Shown: in pieces, positions 13,872-14,855 of the stretch
Layout: each line of letters opens with the position of its first letter
Numbering within the stretch: position 1 is the stretch's first letter
Source: Eimeria praecox
Taxonomy: Eukaryota
DNA length: 64,000 bases
Direction: 5' to 3'
Assembly (NCBI GenBank): GCA_963920595.1
Contig: OY986947.1
Span: 1,612,001 to 1,676,000, forward strand
Notes under the pieces: model-generated
What the model was told of the DNA's origin: nothing
Database searches by the model: none
What the model saw: only the letters and a program-made list of their open reading frames with translations
Translations under genes and position numbers: made by a program

Positions 13872-14059
13872 TTAGGGGTTATTAGGGTTAGGTCCCCCCC
13901 CTTCTTCTACTGCTGCTGCTGCATGCAGAGCCTCTCGGCTCCAATTAAATAATAGAGGAAGAGAATGCTGCAGCAGCAGTTGCAGGGTATGCCACTCTCC
14001 TCTTGAACACGAAACAATATGTACTGCTTTCTTTCTTTCCTGCTGCTGCTGCTGCTGCT

Positions 14060-14111
<52 letters not shown>

Positions 14112-14629
14112 ATAATGATGATGCTGCAGCGGCTCCGGTTGCTGCTGCATCAGCGATATACAAACATGTGTTTGTGGTTTCGTAGAATGTGGAGAAACCC
14201 TTAAACTGTACCCTGTACCACAGGGGGCCTCTAGGGGGGGCCCCCCACCTTCCTGGGGGCCCCCAGGGGGCCCCCCTAACAGACAGCCAACATGACGAGC
14301 TTTGAGTAATACAGTTAATCTAGCAGATTTATCGAAAGACTTCTGGGAAGCTAACTTCGGTAAGAAAGAAAATATAATACCTCCTTCTCTCGTGTACACC
14401 TGAGAGGTAGAAACAGAAGAAGAAGAAGAAGAAGAAGAAGAAGAAGAAGAAGAAGAAGAAGAAGAAGAAGAAGAAGAAGAAGAAGAAGAAGAAGAAGAAG
14501 AAGAAGGAGAAGAAGAAGAAGTAGAGTCTAGAGTTGGAGGCGTAGGTTTAACTGTCATCATAGATGTAAGACCAAATATAGAAAAAGAAGCAGGAGGAAA
14601 GATGTTGCTGCTTAGATTACTGCTGTTGT

Positions 14630-14661
<32 letters not shown>

Positions 14662-14677
14662 CTGATCTTGCGGCTGC

Positions 14678-14709
<32 letters not shown>

Positions 14710-14855
14710 CCAGGCCATCTGCGAGGCCCCATATACCATCGGCGATCCCCTAGGGCCCCAGGGGCCCCCCCAAGAACTTCAAGGCGCAGGGGGGCCCCCA
14801 GGGGCCCCCCCAGGGGCCCCCCTCCTTTCAGGGCGTTTGCTGCTAGCCGCAGCAT
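13872..14855 (-). CDS. Whirly-like single-stranded nucleic-acid-binding protein with predicted organellar (mitochondrial-type) presequence, single exon
   Basis: Blocks FSIFGLTSMMTVKPTPP, YTREGGIIFSFLP, FDKSARLTVLLKARHVGCLL, SLRVSP, HIVSCSRGEWHTLQLLLQHSLPLLFNW follow the order and spacing of plant Whirly motifs (SIYKGKAALTVEPRSP, SREGxVMLQFAP, YDWSRKQVFSLSVTEIG, IPVTKAEFAVL...PYLLGW); Arg-rich, acid-poor N-terminus MLRLAANALK...RRWYMGPRRW. Confidence 0.7.

Follow-up and report, generated by a model that had tools for sequence, protein, structure and literature searches.

Sequence profiles and a predicted fold point to a divergent, repeat-interrupted Whirly-family protein in Eimeria

Whirly proteins have been described as plant-specific in one review (PMC9070903; cited here from excerpts, as are PMC3245945, PMC6981420, PMC8092004, PMC2978346 and PMC12427563), and another dates their origin to the ancestor of green plants (PMC11135702). 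Here we analysed a 64,000-nucleotide stretch of repeat-rich eukaryotic DNA from Eimeria praecox (contig OY986947.1, positions 1,612,001 to 1,676,000; hereafter the window) and found that sequence profiles and a structure model identify the product of one open reading frame (ORF) as a divergent, repeat-interrupted member of the Whirly family. The ORF, on the minus strand, encodes 327 amino acids between an ATG at 14855 and a stop codon ending at 13872, and carries the poly-Ser, Gly/Pro and poly-Gln inserts that an earlier model-made reading of this DNA (the original prediction) had described. The gene is conserved in Eimeriidae (Eimeria and Cyclospora). We lean towards the reading that its product is imported into the mitochondrion and coats single-stranded mitochondrial DNA (mtDNA), where it would keep DNA that is broken or being replicated from mispairing at short repeats.

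Homology to the Whirly domain (PF08536) is detectable by profile comparison, via intermediates only. A profile of six coccidian core sequences (A2), searched against 1.84 billion representative proteins (E ≤ 0.001), gave 11 matches: 4 coccidian-type records, 6 distant proteins and an eel obscurin-like repeat protein (P0012), which was dropped as a false positive with a score summed over repeats. PF08536 was found in five of the six distant proteins, three times at or above the curated cut-off. With a mixed profile (A3), 16 proteins were retrieved, 13 of them new to the distant group, and the 8 matches in PDB included Arabidopsis WHY2 (E = 3.7e-11), potato StWhy2 (1.3e-9 and 2.6e-9), PBF-2 (6.4e-6) and WHY3 (0.0028). 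The claim that blocks of the protein are collinear with the plant domain and end in PLLFNW (residues 300–305) was thus borne out through A3. A further profile, A5, was built from 18 distant non-coccidian relatives only; Whirly chains made up the top six of its seven PDB matches, and its alignment with A2 reached 97.4% probability across 74 columns of the N-terminal half. A5 scored the ORF at 38.6 bits, in two ordered pieces that span both halves, compared with 3.3 for the best of the 432 other ORFs in the window, 4.0 for the best reported of 1,000 shuffles and −9.3 for the reversed protein, a test that is not fully independent because the members of A5 were originally retrieved with coccidian queries. 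As a lead only, Whirly clusters headed an ESM Atlas search (0.86, 0.81 and 0.81), with one MRP cluster at rank 22; none of the three clusters listed among the matches of a second Atlas search, without PF08536, was labelled apicomplexan. Viral contigs gave 25 pattern matches, of which none was confirmed.

The original prediction also made conservation in other coccidia a check, and the blocks, which are the non-repeat portions of the protein, are indeed kept there. Nine matches among 7,982 scored candidates came from E. media, E. flavescens, E. maxima, E. intestinalis, E. stiedai, E. magna, Cyclospora cayetanensis (two records) and one further record, and the A2 search added P0011, which shares 53% identity with the first sequence of the profile. 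As had been anticipated, the named homologs are annotated as hypothetical, uncharacterized or ‘domain-containing’. Four of the ten coccidian-type records (P0006, P0008, P0009 and P0010) stop or diverge midway through the domain, probably as a result of gene-model errors. The models of P0006, P0009 and P0010 all depart from the Whirly frame right after a LEAP block; at this point the window has a GT dinucleotide and its frame continues uninterrupted, and a splice site that is repeatedly miscalled, or a frameshift, probably explains the shared departure. Immediately downstream of the Whirly gene lies a gene for a LysM domain, which looks unusual in a parasite and has at least one further exon near 10697–10807, matching the fused Cyclospora record P0010. 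As this record joins the first half of the Whirly protein to sequence that matches the downstream LysM gene, gene order appears to be conserved.

The AlphaFold model contains the two four-stranded sheets on core helices that characterize the Whirly fold, and the Ser, Gly/Pro and Gln repeats are restricted to loops and a linker. Foldseek matched the model to plant Whirly proteins at E = 1e-6, in line with the structural check that had been proposed, and to the trypanosome proteins MRP1 and MRP2 at E = 0.18–0.37.

A mitochondrial-type leader, also part of the original prediction, fits the features of the N terminus. Before the core, the ORF has 10 Arg or Lys residues compared with 2 Asp or Glu, a hydrophobic moment of 0.61 and no long hydrophobic stretch, and the model places a helix at residues 2–10. 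All nine complete coccidian N-termini, which are mutually related and so not nine independent cases, have 7–10 basic and 1–3 acidic residues before the core, hydrophobic moments of 0.52–0.75, no strong hydrophobic stretch, and an R-x-Y pattern followed by Met. We take R-x-Y/M to be the R-3 cleavage pattern of mitochondrial presequences. Leaders of 13 distant relatives are shorter (12–20 residues), with 2–4 basic and no acidic residues, and 6 of the 13 fit this pattern. From these features, the protein is probably imported into the mitochondrion.

The same region bears on two other destinations. Whirly proteins work in plastids as well as in mitochondria (PMC3245945) and coccidia have a plastid genome, so that the protein might serve the apicoplast as WHY1 serves plastids. 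The profiles place mitochondrial WHY2 above WHY1 and WHY3, and the first 35 residues contain no stretch resembling a signal peptide (best 9-residue hydropathy 0.7–1.9 across the nine sequences), whereas apicoplast import needs a bipartite leader. With a bacterial-type single-stranded DNA (ssDNA)-binding protein already present in the Plasmodium apicoplast (PMC2978346), we regard this destination as remote. Alternatively, the conserved Met42 could be a second start that yields a leaderless nuclear form, possibly coexisting with the mitochondrial one, that binds single-stranded TTTAGGG as Arabidopsis WHY1 does at telomeres. Met occupies this position in all nine complete coccidian sequences, WHY1 binds TTTAGGG (PMC9070903) and the window has 75 arrays of at least four TTTAGGG units. 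Conservation of the Met is equally explained, however, if cleavage leaves it as the new N-terminal residue; as a start codon it lies in a context that is not strong, and the metagenomic relatives are without the Met42 block, which makes a nuclear form very unlikely. The TTTAGGG arrays are interspersed from 3795 to 63541, total 2,968 bases and include some that closely flank the Whirly gene on both sides.

The plant motif KGKAAL is replaced, as had been claimed, although not in the proposed register: rather than FGLTSM it is GLTSMM, shifted by one (G95-L96-T97-S98-M99-M100), that aligns, with F94 matching the aromatic residue that precedes the plant motif. Of the 28 aligned sequences that extend over the column of StWhy2 K67, 27 have Thr there, which places the protein outside the higher-plant WHY1/WHY2 subfamily, which has KGKAAL with K67. 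In potato WHY2, the K67A variant keeps tetramers and the binding of short ssDNA and loses 24-mers on long DNA, and many KGKAAL residues hold up the sheet rather than contact DNA (PMC3245945). Nor does the lack of the motif set the protein apart, because it is missing from Whirly-like proteins of green algae and liverworts too (PMC9070903). By analogy, the coccidian protein, with Thr at the K67 position, would form tetramers without the cooperative 24-mer shell.

We therefore picture the favoured mitochondrial DNA role in conditional steps. The 41-residue leader would be cleaved at R-x-Y/M following import into the matrix; four copies would assemble via their helices and, as in plant WHY2, would bind ssDNA across adjacent sheets, largely regardless of sequence. 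In Eimeria, a 6.2-kilobase (kb) unit is repeated to form concatemeric mtDNA, and in Plasmodium recombination accompanies replication (PMC8092004). Coating of ssDNA by WHY2 hinders annealing at microhomologies (PMC3245945; PMC6981420). The protein may shield ssDNA in this way when the concatemer undergoes recombination-linked replication and break repair.

Several observations weigh against this reading. Pfam scans of the protein, of its C-terminal part and of 10 coccidian homologs found no Whirly domain, and neither phmmer with P0003 nor profile A2 matched a Whirly chain in PDB. Among the A3 matches in PDB, an unrelated fatty-acid-binding protein (E = 0.008) ranks above WHY1 (E = 0.15). Structural identity to plant Whirly proteins is 13–22%, and an AlphaFold control with coccidian sequences only folded poorly (predicted local distance difference test score (pLDDT) 46.7, predicted template modelling score 0.28), so that the good model depends on bridge sequences. 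The leader was called from sequence features only. The plant protein no longer binds ssDNA when the whole KGKAAL motif, which the coccidian protein lacks, is replaced, and Arabidopsis why2 mutants show no phenotype without DNA stress (PMC3245945). No Plasmodium match was named despite a similar concatemeric mtDNA, and the RNA-binding complex MRP1/2 is a close second to plant Whirly in structural Z. The failure of Pfam qualifies the claim that the domain is hidden by repeat insertions: the inserts contribute, but the 10 homologs that are also missed carry shorter ones, and divergence therefore hides the domain as much as the inserts do.

The structural closeness of MRP1/2 raises the alternative of a similar role in RNA, in which the protein would act in the mitochondrion as a chaperone or matchmaker and help to process or pair the many rRNA fragments and polycistronic transcripts of that organelle. 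We consider this unlikely, though it is the strongest of the alternatives. Profiles A3 and A5 retrieve plant Whirly proteins and not MRP, the Foldseek values differ in the same direction, and the 8 A3 matches in PDB include no solved apicomplexan mitoribosome chain. Pfam scans of the protein, its homologs and the distant proteins gave no match to PF09387, and one copy per species was seen in our searches, compared with the two proteins of MRP1/2. Both sequence and fold place the protein nearer to plant Whirly than to MRP1/2, which favours a DNA role over an RNA role. A Whirly-derived protein that has given up nucleic-acid binding for a structural or scaffold role is improbable, as the core is still net basic and E157, G158, F174, K176 and G190 are unchanged over 32 sequences of the coccidian and metagenomic groups.

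The distant Whirly proteins (P0013, P0015–P0018 and P0026–P0038; loci L001–L004) come from metagenomic eukaryotes with compact genomes, on contigs that are compact and apparently intron-poor. At each of the three loci examined out of these four (L001:1–2771, L002 and L004), the gene lies between genes that we take, from their sequences, to be V-ATPase subunit a-like and glycosyltransferase-like, with gaps of about 100 bases. P0014 (183 amino acids) matches both groups, with a score of 53.6 bits against A5, has no Pfam Whirly match and sits on a very long branch; it is a probable third Whirly lineage. In a tree of 22 sequences, with truncated and near-duplicate ones omitted, the branch to the coccidian group measures 4.07 changes per column.

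Orthologues in Toxoplasma and Plasmodium, which the original prediction had proposed to look for, did not emerge: none of the records named in profile or protein searches came from Toxoplasma, Neospora or Plasmodium. The hits of these searches are cluster representatives, and we claim no absence from them, as A2 at the chosen cut-off recovered 11 of the 19 distant proteins already known as members and a word-based A3 search missed known members. Toxoplasma mtDNA comprises 21 blocks, many of which share microhomologies of 10–14 base pairs (PMC8092004). It is tempting to see Whirly as the missing guard of apicomplexan mtDNA, the loss or decay of which in the Toxoplasma lineage let the genome break into shuffled, microhomology-sharing blocks, while Eimeria and Cyclospora kept both the protein and an orderly genome. 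The attraction comes from the presence of the gene in Eimeriidae, the lack of a named Toxoplasma or Neospora record and the microhomology-joined rearrangements gained by plant why mutants. We hold this scenario to be improbable; the equal lack of a named Plasmodium record, the limited sensitivity of A2 and the reliance on cluster representatives weigh against it.

The gene apparently consists of a single exon, as the homologs are co-linear and no usable GT donor precedes the poly-Ser run (Table 1). An intron in place of the poly-Ser run was rejected because, considering GT donors only, the sole upstream GT would cut out conserved residues. In the 700 bases scanned upstream of the ATG, no other ATG opens a frame of more than 7 codons. 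Repeats in the protein comprise Ser runs at residues 50–59, 65–72 and 118–147, a Gln run at 249–272 and Gly/Pro stretches. A stretch of 276 bases around block 2 (14130–14405) is also present in two contig runs of DNA from one sample, with one synonymous difference at 14346. No RNA record carrying the gene was listed, which speaks neither for nor against its expression.

Table 1 Features of the Whirly gene and other matches in the window
Feature	Position	Strand	Basis or remarks
Complete coding sequence, predicted Whirly-family protein with N-terminal leader	13872..14855	-	Apparently single exon; 5 homologs co-linear throughout
Predicted mitochondrial presequence, residues 1–41, up to conserved R39-W40-Y41 before M42	14733..14855	-	Composition, hydrophobic moment, model helix
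Conserved MGPRR block, then disordered Ser-rich linker, residues 42–85	14601..14732	-	pLDDT <50
Whirly core block 1: strands 91–94, 98–105, 108–112; GLTSMM where plants have KGKAAL	14520..14585	-	Profile alignment, model
Poly-Ser insert, 30 residues, in loop; likely coding	14415..14504	-	No GT donor, codons 102–148; short Gly/Pro loop there in homologs
Whirly core block 2: residues 152–193, three strands and helix 1	14277..14402	-	Alignment, model; holds the five invariant residues
Whirly core block 3: second-sheet strands 208–212, 216–222, 230–237	14145..14234	-	Profile alignment, model
Poly-Gln insert, 24 residues, in loop	14040..14111	-	Homolog comparison
Whirly core block 4: final strand, then long C-terminal helix to PLLFNW	13941..14030	-	Profile alignment, model
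LysM-domain gene	10697-11811	-	PF01476, E 1.7e-10
WD40 match	28101-28745	-	
Brr6/Brl1-like nuclear envelope domain	35052-36578	-	PF10104, E 7.6e-18
798-codon frame, Sua5/YrdC domain	37348-39741	+	PF01300, E 2.3e-30
F-box-like match	41593-43923	-	
Ribosomal protein S9/S16 match	50479-50817	-	

Replication and maintenance of mtDNA have been described as unknown for Toxoplasma (PMC9490983), and the protein described here offers a concrete candidate for an ssDNA-binding factor, likely mitochondrial, in Eimeria and Cyclospora. It provides a way to ask why Eimeria retains a repeating 6.2-kb mtDNA while that of Toxoplasma is scrambled (PMC8092004), and an example of how divergence and repeats can conceal known domains in coccidian proteomes. 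No parasite Whirly protein was found in the literature on Whirly with apicomplexa, Toxoplasma or Plasmodium, searched by title and the start of the abstract; subscription papers, bioRxiv supplements, and ToxoDB and PlasmoDB annotations fall outside this scope and may bear on novelty. The word ‘Whirly’ is likewise absent from the available text of PMC11079077 and its supplements, from 12 of the 16 supplements of PMC4501334 and from the available text of PMC13623125.

Among known systems, the Trypanosoma brucei MRP1/MRP2 complex (PDB 2gia, 2gid and 2gje; PF09387) consists of two proteins and binds guide RNA; it is not among the PDB matches of profiles A3 and A5, and its Foldseek E values are at least 0.18. 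EnSSB of Eimeria necatrix (ENH_00003220) is likewise an Eimeria protein with an ssDNA-binding domain, but it is a separate protein of 495 amino acids with an oligonucleotide/oligosaccharide-binding fold, cytoplasmic in macrogametocytes (PMC12427563). Plastid WHY1/WHY3 and PBF-2 p24 (PDB 1l3a, 4koo and 4koq), which have plastid and nuclear roles, match the A3 profile less well (E = 6e-6 to 0.15). The metagenomic proteins are the nearest Whirly-positive relatives found: they share Thr at the K67 position, the REG and F-x-K motifs and a mitochondrial-type leader, and differ in alignment identity (17–26%), in having no repeats, in the shortness of the leader and in a C-terminal motif of their own. 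Plant mitochondrial WHY2 (StWhy2, PDB 3n1h, 3r9y and 3r9z; AtWHY2, PDB 4kop; PF08536) differs from the coccidian protein in its sequence (13–22% structural identity, KGKAAL rather than GLTSMM, and K67 rather than Thr), whereas the coccidian protein has long Ser, Gly/Pro and Gln loop inserts, falls below Pfam detection and belongs to an apicomplexan. WHY2 is nevertheless the best match by both profile and fold, with strands and helices in the same order throughout a full-length Whirly domain, the same P-x-L-x-x-W end helix and an N-terminal leader of organelle type.
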